Assembly (NCBI GenBank): GCA_030679985.1
Contig: JAUXSI010000028.1
Location: forward strand, 1 to 61,738
DNA length: 61,738 nt
Reading direction: 5' to 3'
Source of the DNA: Candidatus Moraniibacteriota bacterium
GTDB lineage: Bacteria > Patescibacteriota > Minisyncoccia > Moranbacterales > UBA2206
Shown here in pieces: positions 29,775-39,972 of this stretch; the first letter of the stretch is position 1; each line of letters begins with the position of its first letter. The position numbers and the translations under genes are program-made. The notes below the pieces were generated by a model, which ran no database searches, was not told where the DNA came from, and saw only the letters and a program-made list of their open reading frames with translations.

Positions 29775-29809
29775 AAAAAATAAAAAAACCGGCGCTGAGA
29801 ACGCGTCGG
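29775..29809 (-). terminator. Intrinsic terminator at the end of the sipW/TasA-like operon
   Basis: CCGGCGC (29789-29795) pairs with GCGTCGG (29803-29809), followed by a long T-run on the minus strand. Confidence 0.6.
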
Positions 29810-29833
29810 CTTTCCGATTTCGCTATCTCCGAT

Positions 29834-31129
29834 CTATCCGGATACGGAGCCGGCCGGATCATCCGGTTCCAAAACCGGATCAGCCTCAATTCCGACTTCC
29901 TCTTCGACAAGCTCTTCCGGTTCAGTCCCCGGACCGGCGGCATCGGTTTCCAGCGGCACCGTTCCATCTTCGCTTTCCCCAGAAATATCACTCTCGCCGT
30001 CATCCTCAGCCGGAATCACAGCGTCAGCGACAGCCAGCGGATCAATTTGGTTTGGATTTTGTTCCGACACAATGACATCCGCCTTGCCAGAATCCTCTTC
30101 TTTTTCCAATGATGTCTGCTCCGGTCCGGATTTATCCTCTTCTAATTTATTTTTCTTTCCGGGAGTCGGGACCGGATCGACCCAATTATCCGAACCATCC
30201 GAAATCCTGGCGAAAGATTTGCCTTCCGACGCCCTGCCTTTGTATTCATATGCATCAATCAAATCAGCGCCAGCGGAAATTTCCCCGGCATACAACCGCA
30301 CCGTGTCCCCGCCGGAATTATTCAAAGCGAAATCGGCATCGCCGTCGCGATAGACCACTAAGAATTTTTTGGGCTTGATAACGGTCGAGTCGGCATCGAT
30401 ATTATCCGGACTGATAACCAATTCGTGATCGTCATCGGAATCATAGAGAACCCAGCCATCGACATCCACATCTTCTTTGCCCCGGTTATATAGTTCCACC
30501 CATTCCCCCGCCGGCTGGGCGCCATTATCATCACCCTCCGGATTCGGTAAAAATTCATTCAGGACGATCCCGTTCCGTTTGAAAGAAACTTCGTCCGTGA
30601 TTTCTTCTTCATCCGTGAACCCTTCCCCGAACGGCAGATCATTTTCCATTTGCGAACCGGAAAATACGATCTTGAACCGGCAAGTTTCGTCCCGCAAATC
30701 TTCCGGGACATCCGGCCGGAAACTGATGCCGAACGACCATTTATCAATATCGGAAGAATCGACCGGACCGTATTGGAAACCGTCCAGCGAACCGGCATAT
30801 TCCGCGTCCTCACTCCTAGGGCCCGCTTCCAATTCCACATAATCACATAGCGGACCGGAAAGTCCGGCGCTGGCAACCTCATAGCGGAACGCTTCACCGC
30901 CATCCAAAACATTCACGTTCCGCGCCAAAACTTCTCCAGCCGGAATCGGTTCTTTGGTGAAACCGACCGGGGTCAATTTGAAATCTAATTTTCCAGCCGT
31001 AAAAGAATTGTTTTCCGATTTTTCACTGTCGACAAAAGACGCCCAAGCTCCGCCGACCAAAGAAAAGCCGACCCACACGAGAGCGGCGGACCAAACCAGC
31101 AGAAAGATTTTGAAAGCCGTTTTGCTCAT
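29834..31129 (-). CDS. Secreted protein: SipW-type (TasA/camelysin-class) signal peptide plus N-domain, lamin-tail domain (LTD), acidic C-terminal tail
   Basis: 431 aa. N-terminus: ...LVGGAWASFVDSEKSENNSFTAGKLDFKL. LTD-like segment: VLNEFLPNPEGDDNGAQPAGEWVELYNRGKEDVDVDGWVLYDSDDDHELVI...NNSGGDTVRLY. The C-terminus is D/E/P-rich. Its ATG overlaps the sipW stop (ATGA at 31126-31129). Confidence 0.85.
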   Translation of the reverse strand: MSKTAFKIFLLVWSAALVWVGFSLVGGAWASFVDSEKSENNSFTAGKLDFKLTPVGFTKEPIPAGEVLARNVNVLDGGEAFRYEVASAGLSGPLCDYVELEAGPRSEDAEYAGSLDGFQYGPVDSSDIDKWSFGISFRPDVPEDLRDETCRFKIVFSGSQMENDLPFGEGFTDEEEITDEVSFKRNGIVLNEFLPNPEGDDNGAQPAGEWVELYNRGKEDVDVDGWVLYDSDDDHELVISPDNIDADSTVIKPKKFLVVYRDGDADFALNNSGGDTVRLYAGEISAGADLIDAYEYKGRASEGKSFARISDGSDNWVDPVPTPGKKNKLEEDKSGPEQTSLEKEEDSGKADVIVSEQNPNQIDPLAVADAVIPAEDDGESDISGESEDGTVPLETDAAGPGTEPEELVEEEVGIEADPVLEPDDPAGSVSG

Positions 31130-31644
31130 ACGCTTTTTTCTTTTTCCCTTTTCATTTTTATAATCTCATCTTTGATTTTTTTAGCTTCATCAAAAATGAT
31201 CCACAGGGCCGGAATCACTACCAGCGCCACGAAGCCATAGGGCTGTTTGGCGGTATGCACGACATATCCCAGGTACGGGACCGTGAAAAAAACTTTGCCT
31301 AAAACATTTTCTTGGGGGATCTCACTGGAATCCTGTCCGTTATTGGCATCGCCCTTAGTGATAAAAGACGTCCGGCCGCCGGTACTTTTTATTTCCACGA
31401 TCCGATGGGTGATGACCAGCTTGGCAGATTTGGCGTCCGCGAAGCTTATCACGTCCCCGACCTGGTAGTCTCCCGGCCGGGTGGCCACGATGCTCCCGGT
31501 CTTAATCGCCGGTTCCATCGAACCCGATTGCACCACCATCACCTTGTAATTTCCGGGAATCGGAAAGGCCGAAACGACCAACAATATGATTACGATGCCT
31601 ATCGCGCCGAAAAAAAGATATTGGACAAATTTGAATATTTTCAT
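31126..31644 (-). CDS. sipW: Signal peptidase I, archaeal/ER type (SipW-like)
   Basis: 172 aa with an N-terminal TM helix, QSGSMEP (nucleophile Ser), ITHRIV (His general base), KGDANNGQD and a C-terminal TM helix. Confidence 0.88.
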   Translation of the reverse strand: MKIFKFVQYLFFGAIGIVIILLVVSAFPIPGNYKVMVVQSGSMEPAIKTGSIVATRPGDYQVGDVISFADAKSAKLVITHRIVEIKSTGGRTSFITKGDANNGQDSSEIPQENVLGKVFFTVPYLGYVVHTAKQPYGFVALVVIPALWIIFDEAKKIKDEIIKMKREKEKSV

Positions 31645-31738
31645 ATTTTTAAAGCCTTACCATCCAGCCCTGGGACTAGGGCTGGAAAAAAAGCTTCAAA
31701 TCCTGATTATGCCGGACAAAAAATCCATTGGACTAGAT

Positions 31739-32470
31739 TTATGGAAAAATCTTGTCAGGATTATTGTCCGCTTGGACCACTTGCATAACCACTTTCCCCG
31801 AGATAGAATCGCTTTGCAAAATATTCCCTTCTCCTGCAGGCAGACTCCATTTTATTCCCAGGTAATATGTATTGGAAGCGACAATCTCTTCTGGCAAAAC
31901 GATCCAGCCCAAGGCATAGATATCGTCAGCGGATATGTCTTCCTCCAAGACGGATTCCACTCCATCCAGGATCTTGTCGCCCTCCTGCGGATCCAGCGCG
32001 CACGCCGGTTGGTTGGTCGGACACTGCCAGCCAGAAACGCCCCCTTCATCCATCCACAAAGTAAAGAGAAGTTTCTTGCCCAATTCACCCTGTCCGTTGC
32101 CTGGATCACCGCAGGTCGCATCCAATTTCGCTTCCGGTTCCGTGCAGGCGTTCTCCCAATTGAAGAGATTAGCCAGACTTATCCGCCCCCAAGCGTTATT
32201 GTTGTACACATGCCAGCTGATCGCTGCTGAGCGGCTGTCGCCCGGCTTCACGTCACATTCAGAAAAGAATGGCCGGTTGTCCACCAGATCCCTTTCAGAA
32301 AAAGAGCAGCCGACTTTATCGCATTGGTAATCGACTTTCAAGTCGATCTCGCCGGCGCTGAAAGTGTTACCGACACTCTCCTCCTGATCCCTGAAAAAAG
32401 ACATCGTTCCACCAATCAATACAACGCCTACTATCCCGATTACGCCCAGACTGAACAATATTTTTTTCAT
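31739..32470 (-). CDS. TasA/camelysin-family secreted protein (SipW-dependent signal peptide)
   Basis: 243 aa. N-terminus: MKKILFSLGVIGIVGVVLIGGTMSFFRDQEESVGNTFSAGEIDLKVD, which matches the TasA/CalY N-terminal pattern. Confidence 0.85.
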   Translation of the reverse strand: MKKILFSLGVIGIVGVVLIGGTMSFFRDQEESVGNTFSAGEIDLKVDYQCDKVGCSFSERDLVDNRPFFSECDVKPGDSRSAAISWHVYNNNAWGRISLANLFNWENACTEPEAKLDATCGDPGNGQGELGKKLLFTLWMDEGGVSGWQCPTNQPACALDPQEGDKILDGVESVLEEDISADDIYALGWIVLPEEIVASNTYYLGIKWSLPAGEGNILQSDSISGKVVMQVVQADNNPDKIFP

Positions 32471-32525
32471 AATAATTTTCTATCCCTGCATCTTCCCGAA
32501 GAAAGATCGCGCGGGGATATGCAAA

Positions 32526-33146
32526 TTAATCCCCAGGTTGATTATATTCACCGATTGTAGGACAACCATCCGGATATTGGTTTCTCTCCTGCTGGGCATC
32601 AATAACCAAGTCCCCTGAGAATGAATCGGTTTGGACCGAATTATTCACAGTCGACGGAAGATTCCAACCGACTGCATATTTGTATGTCTGGCTTCCGACC
32701 AATTCTCCAAGTGAATAAATTCCACCTTCTGTGAATTTTCCGCTTGTAATCGCGGTTCCACCTTCATCATAGATGGTAAATATCATCTCATCATTCAACT
32801 CGCCATCGACATCAGCTACGCAACCAGGCTCGTCCTTCAATTCCGGCTCCGTGCAATCATTATCGGTATCCGTTTGGAATGTAATTTCAGCGAATCCGCA
32901 AGCATTATTATCTTCCACCGTTATATCGAATTTTTTCAAATCCGAATCTCCCGGCTTGATGTCGTCATAATCGAAGATCGGCGAAACCATCGTCTCGCCA
33001 TTGACATTGACGATCAGATCCAATTTTCCGGCTGTGAAAGTGTTGCCGTTGCTTTCCTCCGTGTCATTAAAATAGGCTCCGGTGGCGCCGATGATGATCG
33101 CGGCCGCCGCGAAGATGATCGCTGAACTTAAAAATATTTTTTTCAT
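32526..33146 (-). CDS. TasA/camelysin-family secreted protein (SipW-dependent signal peptide)
   Basis: 206 aa. N-terminus: MKKIFLSSAIIFAAAAIIIGATGAYFNDTEESNGNTFTAGKLDLIVN. Compare B. subtilis TasA ...GGGTWAAFNDIKSKDATFASGTLDL. Confidence 0.87.
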   Translation of the reverse strand: MKKIFLSSAIIFAAAAIIIGATGAYFNDTEESNGNTFTAGKLDLIVNVNGETMVSPIFDYDDIKPGDSDLKKFDITVEDNNACGFAEITFQTDTDNDCTEPELKDEPGCVADVDGELNDEMIFTIYDEGGTAITSGKFTEGGIYSLGELVGSQTYKYAVGWNLPSTVNNSVQTDSFSGDLVIDAQQERNQYPDGCPTIGEYNQPGD

Positions 33147-33284
33147 AGTTTTTTTTATTTGTTAGTTATCGCTTTTTAATTAATTGGTTATTTTTATTCC
33201 GCTCCGTTTATCGGAATAAAATTTTGAAACTTTAGGCAGTTTCCGCCTCGACCTTTAGTTTTATTAAAATAAAATTGTTTTCCC

Positions 33285-33343
33285 AAAAATAAAAAACCGG
33301 CCCAAACGGAAAAGTCTTGCAACTTTTCGGTCTAAACCGGTTT
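33285..33343 (-). terminator. Terminator-like compound hairpin inside the leader of the TasA-like operon (candidate attenuator)
   Basis: On the minus strand: AAACCGG...[GAAAAGT-TGCAAG-ACTTTTC]...CCGGTTT followed by TTTTTTATTTTT. It lies about 110 nt downstream of the predicted promoter and about 140 nt upstream of the ATG at 33146. Confidence 0.4.
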
Positions 33344-33459
33344 CGCCATTAAGCTCCCCGCACAAACATGAGCGACCAGGATACCCATTCATAAAAATCA
33401 TCCCGATGCGCGGATCACAGCTCTTTTAAATATGGCATTAAATTTTTCCTGGTATATCA

Positions 33460-33488
33460 ATTATAGCAAACGTTCAAAAACTAAGCAA
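33460..33488 (-). promoter_or_regulatory. Sigma-70-type promoter (TTGCTT-17 nt-TATAAT)
   Basis: On the minus strand, the -35 TTGCTT is at 33488..33483 and the consensus -10 TATAAT is at 33465..33460, with a 17-nt spacer. It sits between the upstream gene's terminator and the TasA-like operon. Confidence 0.55.
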
Positions 33489-34288: not shown

Positions 34289-34825
34289 TCAGACGAGCGT
34301 GAATATCCGATCATTGTCGGATAGTATCATCTGATTGACGCTTCCATCGCTATCGATCACCAGTGGTGAGCCCTCGATGATCTTGAGCTCATAATCCCGG
34401 GCAATTTCCTCTATGACATTCCTGTGCTCGGCAGGAATACTGATTACCACCCATAGCGCGCCCAACCACCCGGCTAAGCGCAAACTGAAAAGATTCCCAT
34501 ATCCTCCCATATATCTGAGAATGTCCGGCTTGATTTTCGTCAACATCCCGACATAATGGAGAAACTTTTCATCTTCCAAAAACCGTCCGAATTGCCCATC
34601 CTCTTCCAACTTTTCCATCGCGTAATCTCCTCTCATTGCGCCTGGGTTGATAGTTCGCAAGGAAAAACCGATTGGCACAAGACGCGCCGAATCCGCTAGT
34701 CCTTGAAGTGGTTTCAGATATTTATCCCATATTAACATATCGGCATCTTGTCCGAAACCCCCGGTTGGCAAAATATCCGGCCTGAAACAACCCCGGTCGG
34801 AGGATGTATTATTCAACGCGACCAA
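34289..34825 (-). CDS. Hypothetical protein
   Basis: 178-aa ORF. The start is uncertain (an alternative Met30 lies at 34738). No motif recognised. Confidence 0.5.
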   Translation of the reverse strand: MVALNNTSSDRGCFRPDILPTGGFGQDADMLIWDKYLKPLQGLADSARLVPIGFSLRTINPGAMRGDYAMEKLEEDGQFGRFLEDEKFLHYVGMLTKIKPDILRYMGGYGNLFSLRLAGWLGALWVVISIPAEHRNVIEEIARDYELKIIEGSPLVIDSDGSVNQMILSDNDRIFTLV

Positions 34826-34840
34826 CTAAAAGACAAACTT

Positions 34841-35434
34841 ATGCCGACAAACGACAACTGCGAAAATTCCATCACTATCGCCTGGCACAGACCCGACTTC
34901 AAGGAGAAGTTGTTTTTCTTGACGTCCGGTATGGTTATGAGCATCCCTTTTACTCTGTTGACCGAATCATCCGCCTCCCAGCTATTGCTGGAATCCGGCT
35001 TGCCGATTTTTTATGCCCAATTTTTTTCAATCGCCCTGATCGCCCCGGTCTTGGAAGAATTCGCCAAGGCCTATCCTTTGTTCTACCGCCACGGCGAAAC
35101 GGAAAAATCCATCGTCACCCTGGGGTTCTATGCCGGCTTGGGTTTCGGCCTGGTGGAATTCATATTTTTCATATTCTATTTCGGCGCACCGATCGTGCCA
35201 CGCGCTTCAGCCGTCCTGTTCCACGCGGCAAACACTTCCATCATGGCTTACGGCATCGCCAAGAAAGAGCCTTGGAAATTTTATGCCCTGCCAGTCGCCC
35301 TGCATCTGGTCAATAACTCGCTGGCGCTTTCCGGAACAGCCCGGCCCCATCTGATCGCTTCGGTGCTTTTAGTCTCCTATGTGTTGGCGGCCGTCCTCCA
35401 CCTCAAAGCTTCCGACAAAATAATCAAGTATTGA
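34841..35434 (+). CDS. PrsW-like intramembrane metalloprotease family protein
   Basis: Start at Met32 of the listed ORF. Multi-TM with APVLEEFAKAYPL (EExxK) and a later FHAANTSIMAYG / ALHLVNN His-containing helix pair. Confidence 0.65.
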   Translation: MPTNDNCENSITIAWHRPDFKEKLFFLTSGMVMSIPFTLLTESSASQLLLESGLPIFYAQFFSIALIAPVLEEFAKAYPLFYRHGETEKSIVTLGFYAGLGFGLVEFIFFIFYFGAPIVPRASAVLFHAANTSIMAYGIAKKEPWKFYALPVALHLVNNSLALSGTARPHLIASVLLVSYVLAAVLHLKASDKIIKY

Positions 35435-38823: not shown

Positions 38824-39972
38824 ATGGACAAAAAAACACGGATGAAAACCATCCTCATAATACTGGCGGCAATCCTGGTTCCGGCCTGGGTGTCGGCGGC
38901 AACGGTCTGGGGAGGTAAAGAATTCACACTAGGGAAAAACGAAACTATCGATGATAACCTCTATGTCGGCGCGAGCGACGTGACGGTTTCCGGCGAAGTG
39001 AAAAATGACCTGCTGGCGGCCGGAGGGATCGTTCTGCTGACCGGCACCGTAGGCGAGGACGCGACACTGGCGGGAGGCAACGTGGATGTCCTGGGTGAAG
39101 TGCGGGGAGACTTGCGCCTGGCCGGAGGCCAATTGACCATAGGCAAGAATGTGGGCGGAGATTTGGCAATGGCCGGAGGAAACGCACAGGTGTTGCCTGA
39201 GGTTACCGTGGGAAAGGATATGCTGATCGGCGCTGGCAATGCCGTACTGTCAGGCACGGTCAATGGCGATGTCCGCGGAGGTGGCGGGACCGTCACTATA
39301 AACGGCACCGTCCATGGCGACGTGATTTTGGATGTTTCCCAAAAGTTGATCTTGGGACGGAACGCCATCCTGGAAGGCGATTTGCAATACCGCTCTCCGA
39401 TCAAAGCGGAAATCGCGGAAGGCGCCGCGATACAAGGCGAGATCACCTATGTTCCCTTGCGGATGAAAAACGGAACGGATGGAGGCCGGCAGACGCTGGC
39501 CGGAGCCATAAATTTTTTCCATCTGTCCAGTCTGGCGGCCGCACTGATCGTCGGCCTGGTTTTGGCGCTCTATTTCAAGCCTGGCTTGGATGGAATGATG
39601 CGTACGATCTCCGCCGGATTCGGCCAGGAATTGGTCCGGGGACTGGTGGTCGCCGTGGTGTCGCCAATCGCCATCCTTATCCTTTTTGCGACCATCATCG
39701 GCTGGATTGCCGGCTTAACCGCCCTATTGGCCTATCTTATCCTGTTGATTATCAGCAACGTCTTGGCCGGCCTGATTTTCGGAAGCCTGCTTGCGAAATA
39801 TTGGTATAAAAAAGGCGTGGCTGAAGTGACTTGGAAAAACGCGCTTGGCGGCATCATCATTCTCGCGATCCTGGGCTACATCCCGCTTATCGGCTGGCTA
39901 GCGTGGCTAGTCTTCTTCCTGGTGGCATTGGGAGTGCTCAGTAGCAAGTTTTGGCAAAAAATAAAAAGCTGA
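38824..39972 (+). CDS. Membrane protein: signal peptide, beta-helix-type (bactofilin/polymer-forming-like) repeat ectodomain, multi-TM C-terminus
   Basis: 382 aa. About 10 degenerate repeats of the G(D/N)(V/L)...G.V.GD(L/V) type (e.g. VSGEVKNDLLAAGG, LTGTVGEDATLAGG, VLGEVRGDLRLAGG) are followed by about 5 TM helices. Confidence 0.7.
   Translation: MDKKTRMKTILIILAAILVPAWVSAATVWGGKEFTLGKNETIDDNLYVGASDVTVSGEVKNDLLAAGGIVLLTGTVGEDATLAGGNVDVLGEVRGDLRLAGGQLTIGKNVGGDLAMAGGNAQVLPEVTVGKDMLIGAGNAVLSGTVNGDVRGGGGTVTINGTVHGDVILDVSQKLILGRNAILEGDLQYRSPIKAEIAEGAAIQGEITYVPLRMKNGTDGGRQTLAGAINFFHLSSLAAALIVGLVLALYFKPGLDGMMRTISAGFGQELVRGLVVAVVSPIAILILFATIIGWIAGLTALLAYLILLIISNVLAGLIFGSLLAKYWYKKGVAEVTWKNALGGIIILAILGYIPLIGWLAWLVFFLVALGVLSSKFWQKIKS

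Follow-up and report, generated by a model that had tools for sequence, protein, structure and literature searches.

A four-gene SipW/TasA-type locus with a lamin-tail protein and a riboswitch-like leader as a candidate fiber system in a Patescibacteria genome

The closest described system is the tapA-sipW-tasA operon of Bacillus subtilis (PDB 8AUR, 5OF1; PMC9674648, PMC10151520), in which the gene for a dedicated endoplasmic reticulum (ER)/archaeal-type signal peptidase lies among those of its substrates. The donor strand of TasA consists of residues 28–38, directly past the SipW cleavage site, and TapA, which resembles TasA only in this strand, has been proposed to supply the first strand (PMC9674648). 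The archaeal bundling pili AbpA/AbpB (PDB 7UEG, PMC9245690), Tafi pili, and Saci_0406 threads are likewise built from jelly-roll or β-sandwich subunits by donor-strand complementation. The archaeal loci also hold a larger accessory protein (AbpB), and Tafi loci include tip-adhesin and membrane-anchor genes (preprint 10.64898/2026.01.04.697558). We analyzed a four-gene locus of the SipW/TasA class on contig JAUXSI010000028.1 of a Candidatus Moraniibacteriota bacterium. The window referred to below is this entire contig of 61,738 nucleotides, and the genome is 1.07 Mb in 58 contigs and 93% complete. Taken together, homology and gene arrangement make it probable that the four genes are one transcription unit for a TasA-superfamily surface or matrix fiber. 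The locus spans positions 29834–33146 and consists of four minus-strand open reading frames (ORFs) in the order gene A, gene B, peptidase, and gene C.

32526–33146, minus strand: gene A, TasA-like subunit, 206 amino acids (PF12389 45.2 bits, TIGR04088 34.2 bits)
31739–32470, minus strand: gene B, second TasA-like subunit, 243 amino acids (PF12389 23.1 bits, TIGR04088 21.5 bits)
31126–31644, minus strand: SipW-type (ER/archaeal-type, S26B) signal peptidase I, 172 amino acids (TIGR02228 126.9 bits, cut-off 51.85)
29834–31129, minus strand: gene C, accessory protein, 431 amino acids (lamin tail domain PF00932 53 bits, TIGR04088 19.7 bits)

The A–B and B–peptidase spacers are 55 and 94 nt, and the peptidase stop and the C start share ATGA at 31129–31126. 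This is the arrangement of minus-strand genes, short gaps, and one overlap that a sequence-only reading of this DNA had described. The same reading had placed the locus in the SipW/TasA class, an assignment borne out by the matches to PF12389 (camelysin/TasA, Peptidase_M73; cut-off 22.5 bits), TIGR04088 (cognate_SipW; cut-off 19 bits), and TIGR02228. The three SipW-type N termini that it had picked out are present letter for letter, and all three score above the TIGR04088 cut-off. A belongs to PF12389 and B belongs marginally; C scores 20.0 bits and was not filed as a member. A metalloprotease (camelysin, M73) function is ruled out by the lack of HExxH in all four proteins, and LPXTG is likewise found in 0/4. 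The genome encodes a sortase, but sortase anchoring was rejected because A, B, and C lack LPXTG.

The peptidase belongs to the ER/archaeal-type class by its profile score and by its Ser/His/Asp residues in place of a Ser/Lys dyad. The SGSMEP, THRIV, and GDANN motifs of the sequence-only reading were found at residues 40, 79, and 98, respectively. Ten relatives all keep S42 (SGSMEP), H80 (THRIV), and D99 and D105 (GDANN..D). Hydrophobic transmembrane segments lie at the N and C termini of the protein. A six-frame search of the 1.07 Mb genome with TIGR04088 returned exactly A, B, and C over the cut-off (37.8, 25.0, and 24.7 bits), and the sole SipW-type (TIGR02228) peptidase of the genome adjoins them. 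One LepB-type peptidase (148 bits) is encoded on a different contig. The existence of this separate LepB argues that the N-terminal motif is not an ordinary LepB signal, the scenario that would have undone the earlier interpretation. Three SipW-cognate pre-proteins, one dedicated peptidase, and a separate LepB are among the observations behind reading the locus as encoding a SipW-processed fiber.

The locus is related to the B. subtilis operon but differs from it in several respects. A, B, and C have in common with TasA the N-terminal pattern T-x-A↓x-F-x-D...F-x-x-G-x-L-D, which is the donor strand in TasA, and TasA is likewise an acidic, all-β subunit. The order here is subunits, peptidase, and accessory protein, there are two short subunit paralogs, and the host has a Patescibacteria genome of ~1 Mb. 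Control is apparently exerted by a riboswitch-like leader rather than by SinR. The TasA equivalog model NF046066 (cut-off 450 bits) gave 20.8 bits for A, 12.8 for B, and 14.8 for C, and the SipW equivalog model NF046067 (cut-off 190 bits) gave 118.9 bits for the peptidase. These scores below the Bacillus equivalog cut-offs indicate that the operon proteins are relatives, not orthologs, of TasA and SipW.

A and B are full-length paralogs with 32% identity (E 3e-32). Cleavage sites were placed in A, B, and C by alignment with TasA GGGTWA↓AFND, which supplies the SipW site prediction that the sequence-only reading had offered as a check. The predicted site in A is TGA24↓YFND, giving a mature protein of 19.8 kDa and pI 4.05, and the predicted site in B is TMS24↓FFRD, giving 24.0 kDa and pI ~4.1. 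In C the predicted site is AWA30↓SFVD, and the mature protein is 43.2 kDa with pI ~4.1. Phe occupies P2′ at all three predicted sites. The segment after the cleavage site, xFxDxExSxxNxFxAGxLD, is conserved for ~20 residues past the site and is unpacked in the monomer models. The AlphaFold2 model of A (26 aligned homologs; pLDDT 73.8) is an all-β sandwich with residues 1–38 unpacked. In a Foldseek comparison of this model with the PDB, the TasA fiber 8aur_A was a weak match at rank 3 (E 4e-3), and it came first among the solved matches of A in both TMq (0.47) and alignment length (217 columns). AbpA (7ueg), the Saci_0406 thread (7pnb), and CanA (9hdi) were further fold matches; 7ueg and 7pnb were weak (TMq 0.26–0.28). 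Sequence similarity of A and B to the archaeal filament subunits was not detectable here, and the archaeal systems, unlike this locus, rely on the general signal peptidase or on peptidases of other types. The A-family profile matched TasA 5OF1 weakly (E 0.68), yet both terminal motifs were aligned, with KSKDATFASGTLDL and QGNSIKLQFSFEATQ at the alignment ends. The A sequence compared with PDB chains gave no TasA and only a chance-level match to a collagen-adhesin repeat.

C consists of a SipW-type signal, a donor-strand-like segment, a β-sandwich (~50–184), a lamin-tail domain (185–297), and an acidic disordered tail (328–431). Residues 185–297 match PF00932 at 53 bits (E 5e-14, cut-off 34.3), a domain absent from the earlier description of the protein. 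The 104-residue tail contains 33 D/E and 4 K/R. The AlphaFold2 model of C (pLDDT 70.4) starts with a signal helix and an unpacked stretch at 26–43, continues with sandwiches at ~50–184 and 188–308, and ends in a disordered tail; a fold search assigned no specific fold to the first β-sandwich. Homology between the C and A families is confined to residues 3–75 (hhalign probability 98.4%). This shared stretch runs from the signal through the post-cleavage segment to the first core strand. C, like TapA, resembles the subunit only at its N terminus, but it is not TapA-like in sequence and has a lamin-tail domain and an acidic tail; its Pfam and NCBIfam matches at E <= 0.1 include no TapA-named family. 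From these comparisons, C appears TapA-like in logic only, in that its predicted N-terminal strand is common with the subunits. The sequence check found neither a C-terminal transmembrane segment nor LPXTG in C. The earlier proposal of two subunits plus an accessory or anchor protein therefore stands for A and B as TasA-like paralogs and for C as an accessory protein, and fails for C as an anchor.

We infer fiber assembly from homology only, and the role of C in the fiber by the same route. Cleavage by the peptidase would fall after T/A-x-A/S in A, B, and C (TGA↓YF, TMS↓FF, AWA↓SF), at positions homologous to TasA A27↓A28. The 18–20 residues exposed by this cleavage would be the donor strand that completes the β-sandwich of the next subunit, and A and B would polymerize into a TasA-like shaft. 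C would plug into a subunit groove as proposed for TapA and may nucleate or cap the fiber, displaying its lamin-tail domain and acidic tail. Lacking an adjacent membrane-anchored base subunit, unlike most of its Patescibacteria counterparts, the fiber would either be attached by a protein from another locus or be released to form matrix.

The architecture of the locus is conserved across Patescibacteria. Species-representative genomes, scanned by pattern, gave at least 569 peptidase relatives, and the best 80 loci, nearly all labeled Patescibacteria, were surveyed. Their ORFs were searched with purpose-built hidden Markov models (HMMs); 79 loci were scored, 67 of them with enough upstream sequence. 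One to four TasA-like genes lie upstream of sipW in 66/67 loci, two being the commonest number. A C-type gene, defined by the signal, the C N-domain, or a lamin-tail domain, lies downstream of sipW in 71/79 loci, and the lamin-tail domain is present in 49 of these 71 genes. The subunits-sipW-C order, which the sequence-only reading had named as a point to survey in relatives, is kept across Patescibacteria on both counts. The peptidase is fused to the downstream substrate in 7/79 loci. Single-ORF fusions via a transmembrane segment are P0088, P0099, and P0124, and those at loci L092, L097, L101, L103, L104, L111, and L049. A peptidase fused to its own substrate with a SipW signal and lamin-tail domain implies cleavage in cis. 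An even phylum sample of 151 genomes, in which related genomes are not independent and counts carry no statistic, contains 32 genomes with a SipW-type peptidase and 17 with TIGR04088 matches, all 17 among the 32. In these 17 genomes, the TIGR04088 matches are nearly all on the contig of the peptidase and within ~2 kb. Several long open frames in the sample also resemble peptidase-substrate fusions.

Most of the surveyed loci carry a fifth gene. In the 69 loci with sufficient downstream sequence, the ORF beyond the C-type gene usually terminates in a transmembrane segment with basic residues after it. With the stricter requirement of a PLF..PG motif or an HMM match to the C N-domain, 35 of these ORFs were scored, of which 33 have a C-terminal transmembrane segment. 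From N to C terminus, proteins of the fifth-gene family comprise an ordinary signal and a TasA-like core, then a Gly-rich linker and an FN3-like domain, and finally the transmembrane anchor. Its core aligns with A residues 43–186 (hhalign probability 92.7%, E 4e-7) and starts just past the donor strand, and by this comparison the fifth gene looks like an acceptor-only, membrane-bound base subunit. The five-gene cassette has the same one-strand core as the window, with 1–4 TasA-like genes, sipW, and a protein that combines donor strand, β-sandwich, and lamin tail. Three genomes of the same family, G003, G010, and G014, have the fifth gene after the lamin-tail gene. In contrast, the fifth gene is absent from the locus of this genome and has no match in the same-genus genomes G001 and G002. 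The nearest relative, L117 (C 70% identical), has the same four genes followed by the same unrelated 397-residue gene as the window, and it too lacks the fifth gene. These data show that the window holds a reduced, anchor-less cassette variant. A and B are also short here and lack extra lectin-like domains, and this sublineage adds a leader of the type described below.

A match to the anchor half was seen elsewhere. Contig C53:1–828 (L116/L118) opens inside an ORF, whose remaining, 5′-truncated part encodes Ig-like and FN3-like domains, a poly-Asp tract, and a transmembrane anchor at the C terminus. This ORF aligns with the fifth gene over its FN3-plus-anchor half (132.7 bits) and is the sole such match in this genome.

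The region upstream of gene A contains a promoter-like site and a structured leader.

33460–33488, minus strand: promoter-like site TTGCTT-17 nt-TGc-TATAAT (extended −10), read directly; the −35 matches 3/6
33326–33434, minus strand: c-di-GMP-II-like aptamer candidate, variant with GGCGAAACCGG (RF03169 full length, 1–86, 28.4 bits)
33282–33344, minus strand: terminator hairpin (33344–33293) followed by a U-run (fold of 33280–33455, z −3.4)

The promoter-like site lies past the terminator of the upstream gene, and it was not listed by the consensus scan, its −35 matching at only 3/6 positions. Rfam at gathering thresholds returned nothing in the window. With an E of 1e-3 per genome, the match to RF03169 (c-di-GMP-II-GAG) is under the gathering score of 40, and the genome contains no other. 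Sub-threshold RF03169 matches also precede the cassette in G002, G014, and G034, and the cassette leaders of relatives score 25.7–34.9 bits. The 5′ arm of the terminator overlaps the 3′ end of the aptamer by 19 nt (33344–33326), the start of gene A is 147 nt past the terminator hairpin, and G002 has this hairpin after its aptamer as well. RNAalifold with six copies recovered the three nested stems independently. A covariance model of our own, R1, covers 33320–33440 at 125.8 bits. R1 has ten matches in 1.09 Mb of loci, all on the same strand upstream of the first TasA-like gene of the cassette and 9/10 immediately upstream; five of them (L117, L026, L079, L080, and L085) are outside the training set. 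Besides this locus, nine loci of relatives thus have the leader ahead of their cassette. In an alignment that was fitted to the model, compensatory changes are seen in 11/18 pairs, and pairing holds in 91.5% of cells, compared to 20–52% with slid partners, a level reached by 0/500 shuffles. The leader has a three-stem architecture with covariation and an expression platform.

These features were compared with the riboswitches for cyclic di-GMP (c-di-GMP) of class II (RF01786, RF03169; clan CL00127). The full-length model match and the three nested stems are common to the leader and this class, and the cores GAUCCGCG, CGCGGGGAG, and UGGCGAAACCGG are conserved in it. Further points of likeness are a terminator in competition with the aptamer 3′ end and a position ahead of surface-structure genes. 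In contrast to the known class, the leader at 28.4 bits is under both gathering thresholds, has a 20-nt insertion in the P3 loop, and has GAA for GAG/GCA in the conserved 3′ segment. The single GGDEF protein of the genome (contig C35:19004–19801; L140:705–1502) has 265 residues without an obvious sensor domain, and it keeps an intact GGEEF and an RxxD inhibitory site (RKSD). The presence of a GGEEF cyclase makes c-di-GMP plausible as the leader ligand. The leader is probably an ON riboswitch in which the ligand-bound aptamer competes with the terminator, and the ligand is probably, not certainly, c-di-GMP. Binding of the ligand, probably made by the single GGEEF cyclase, would block the terminator and turn the operon on. 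A c-di-GMP-II-like leader lends regulatory support to a surface or matrix role.

Other leaders of this class were seen in relatives. A second variant leader in G002 (C1:150463–150573; L141, 150300–152800) precedes a polysaccharide-synthase-like gene for a 528-residue processive family 2 glycosyltransferase (GT2; QRSRW) and then a flippase-like gene; a tblastn search for a homolog of this GT2 in the genome analyzed here gave a weak partial match only. This second leader suggests a small fiber-plus-exopolysaccharide regulon. Canonical RF01786 riboswitches, in tandem and over the gathering threshold (56.7–63.1 bits), occur in G018:C12 (L127/L136) and G035:C13 (L128/L135), directly upstream of secreted CAP/SCP (YkwD-like) proteins. 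A broader picture, which we put forward tentatively and regard as doubtful, is that in this lineage a variant c-di-GMP-II-class riboswitch directly switches on the fiber and, with the G002 GT2 copy, makes up a minimal RNA-controlled matrix regulon in a genome of ~1 Mb, the anchor-less four-gene form releasing its lamin-tail-tipped fibers as matrix or host tether and not as a pilus bound to the cell. If true, this would be a second-messenger-controlled attachment switch for an episymbiont.

Several observations weigh against the fiber interpretation and the riboswitch that accompanies it. B is barely over the PF12389 cut-off (23.1 compared to 22.5 bits) and C is under it. The structural likeness of A to TasA is weak, Foldseek giving no PDB match at E <= 1e-3, and the fold search with C gives generic tandem Ig-like and PapD-like matches only (TM score <0.3). 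No anchor was found for the fiber of this genome. The aptamer is below the Rfam threshold, its outer stem is weak in the window, and its binding-site sequence differs from that of characterized c-di-GMP-II RNAs. The firm facts at the locus are the signal motif and the peptidase, and soluble monomeric TasA exists (PMC9674648). With the weak fold match of A to the TasA fiber, these facts would also suit SipW-processed secreted or surface monomers with a coat, matrix, or binding role, their N-terminal motif serving peptidase recognition only. We consider this explanation unlikely because the conserved motif runs ~20 residues past the cleavage site and into the region of the TasA donor strand. The anchored fifth-gene family keeps a TasA-like core and lacks exactly the donor-strand segment, which fits an acceptor-only base, and the 1–4 paralogs per locus are typical of a shaft with minor subunits.

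The association of C with the fiber can be questioned separately. Lamin-tail proteins without SipW signals occur elsewhere in the genome, such as the triple-lamin-tail-domain protein on contig C32, and structure searches gave the body of C no specific match. C could be a secreted lamin-tail protein, independent of A and B, that binds a polymer, nucleic acid, or host surface and borrows the peptidase. The odds are clearly against such independence: a C-type gene follows sipW in 71/79 loci and is fused to it in 7, the homology of C with A extends beyond the signal through the donor-strand segment and first core strand, and its ATGA overlap with sipW points to coupled translation. The presence of a LepB gene in the genome would allow A, B, and C to carry ordinary Sec signals cut by LepB, the SipW-like gene being unrelated to its neighbors, and JGI labels some homologs as ribosomally synthesized and post-translationally modified peptides (RiPPs; "ribosomally synthesized peptide with SipW-like signal"). 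Both ideas are very improbable. TIGR04088 matches occur in 0/119 genomes without a SipW-type peptidase whereas all 17 positive genomes have one, and peptidase-substrate fusions exist. LepB cleaves poorly where P2′ is aromatic (PMC10269814), and Phe at P2′ would accordingly be disfavored. The RiPP assignment is ruled out by the size of the proteins, which at 206–431 residues have folded domains in the models and are not peptides. We retain the SipW-processed fiber as the probable product of the locus.

Attachment of Patescibacteria to surfaces or hosts is known mainly via type IV pili. A TasA-type fiber would be a second widely conserved fiber system in the phylum, and one that is barely described in the literature searched. 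PF12389 proteins in Patescibacteria receive one distribution sentence in PMC9245690, and the 2026 survey of the TasA superfamily (10.64898/2026.01.04.697558) makes no mention of Patescibacteria. The literature searched contained no study linking SipW, lamin-tail proteins, or this leader to the phylum. The logic of peptidase and subunits is the known one; what sets this system apart is its accessory protein, an architecture kept phylum-wide, the loss of the anchor gene in this lineage, and a variant leader resembling a riboswitch. With two small subunits, one peptidase, and one accessory protein, the locus is a compact test case suited to heterologous expression and cryo-electron microscopy. 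The leader would tie the operon to cyclic-dinucleotide signaling, and the variant aptamer is amenable to a simple in vitro test. The comparison of the four-gene cassette with the five-gene cassette, to which an anchored base without a donor strand is added, makes the polarity and tethering of a TasA-type fiber testable.

Three further RNA elements were noted within and after the locus.

32473–32528, minus strand: stable hairpin in the A–B spacer (−20 kcal/mol, z −2.99, 1/200 shuffles as stable), without a U-run
31649–31699, minus strand: stable hairpin in the B–peptidase spacer (spacer fold −34.8 kcal/mol, z −3.63, 0/200 shuffles as stable), without a U-run
29783–29815, minus strand: terminator-like hairpin and T-run, ~20–30 nt past the C stop; a pattern only, with an energy like that of shuffles (z −0.74)

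Both spacer hairpins may, speculatively, be mRNA-stabilizing or attenuating elements that set the subunit-to-peptidase ratio.

Two neighbors of the operon within 6 kb are on the plus strand, and no link was seen between either of them and the fiber genes. A PrsW-family intramembrane protease (33.5 bits) lies at 34748–35434 of the window and a bactofilin-repeat protein (28.2 bits) at 38824–39972, and a ZnuABC-type transporter sits between the two. Elsewhere, the genome holds three T2SSE-type ATPases of type IV pilus machinery, one sortase, and further lamin-tail proteins. Given the type IV pilus ATPases, the TasA-type fiber, which the sequence-only reading had put forward as a candidate attachment organelle, would not be the sole candidate surface appendage. 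Two of the T2SSE-type ATPase matches lie on contig C32 (5194–12880), followed within 4 kb by the triple-lamin-tail-domain protein. This arrangement indicates that lamin-tail proteins accompany both type IV pilus and TasA-like genes in this genome.

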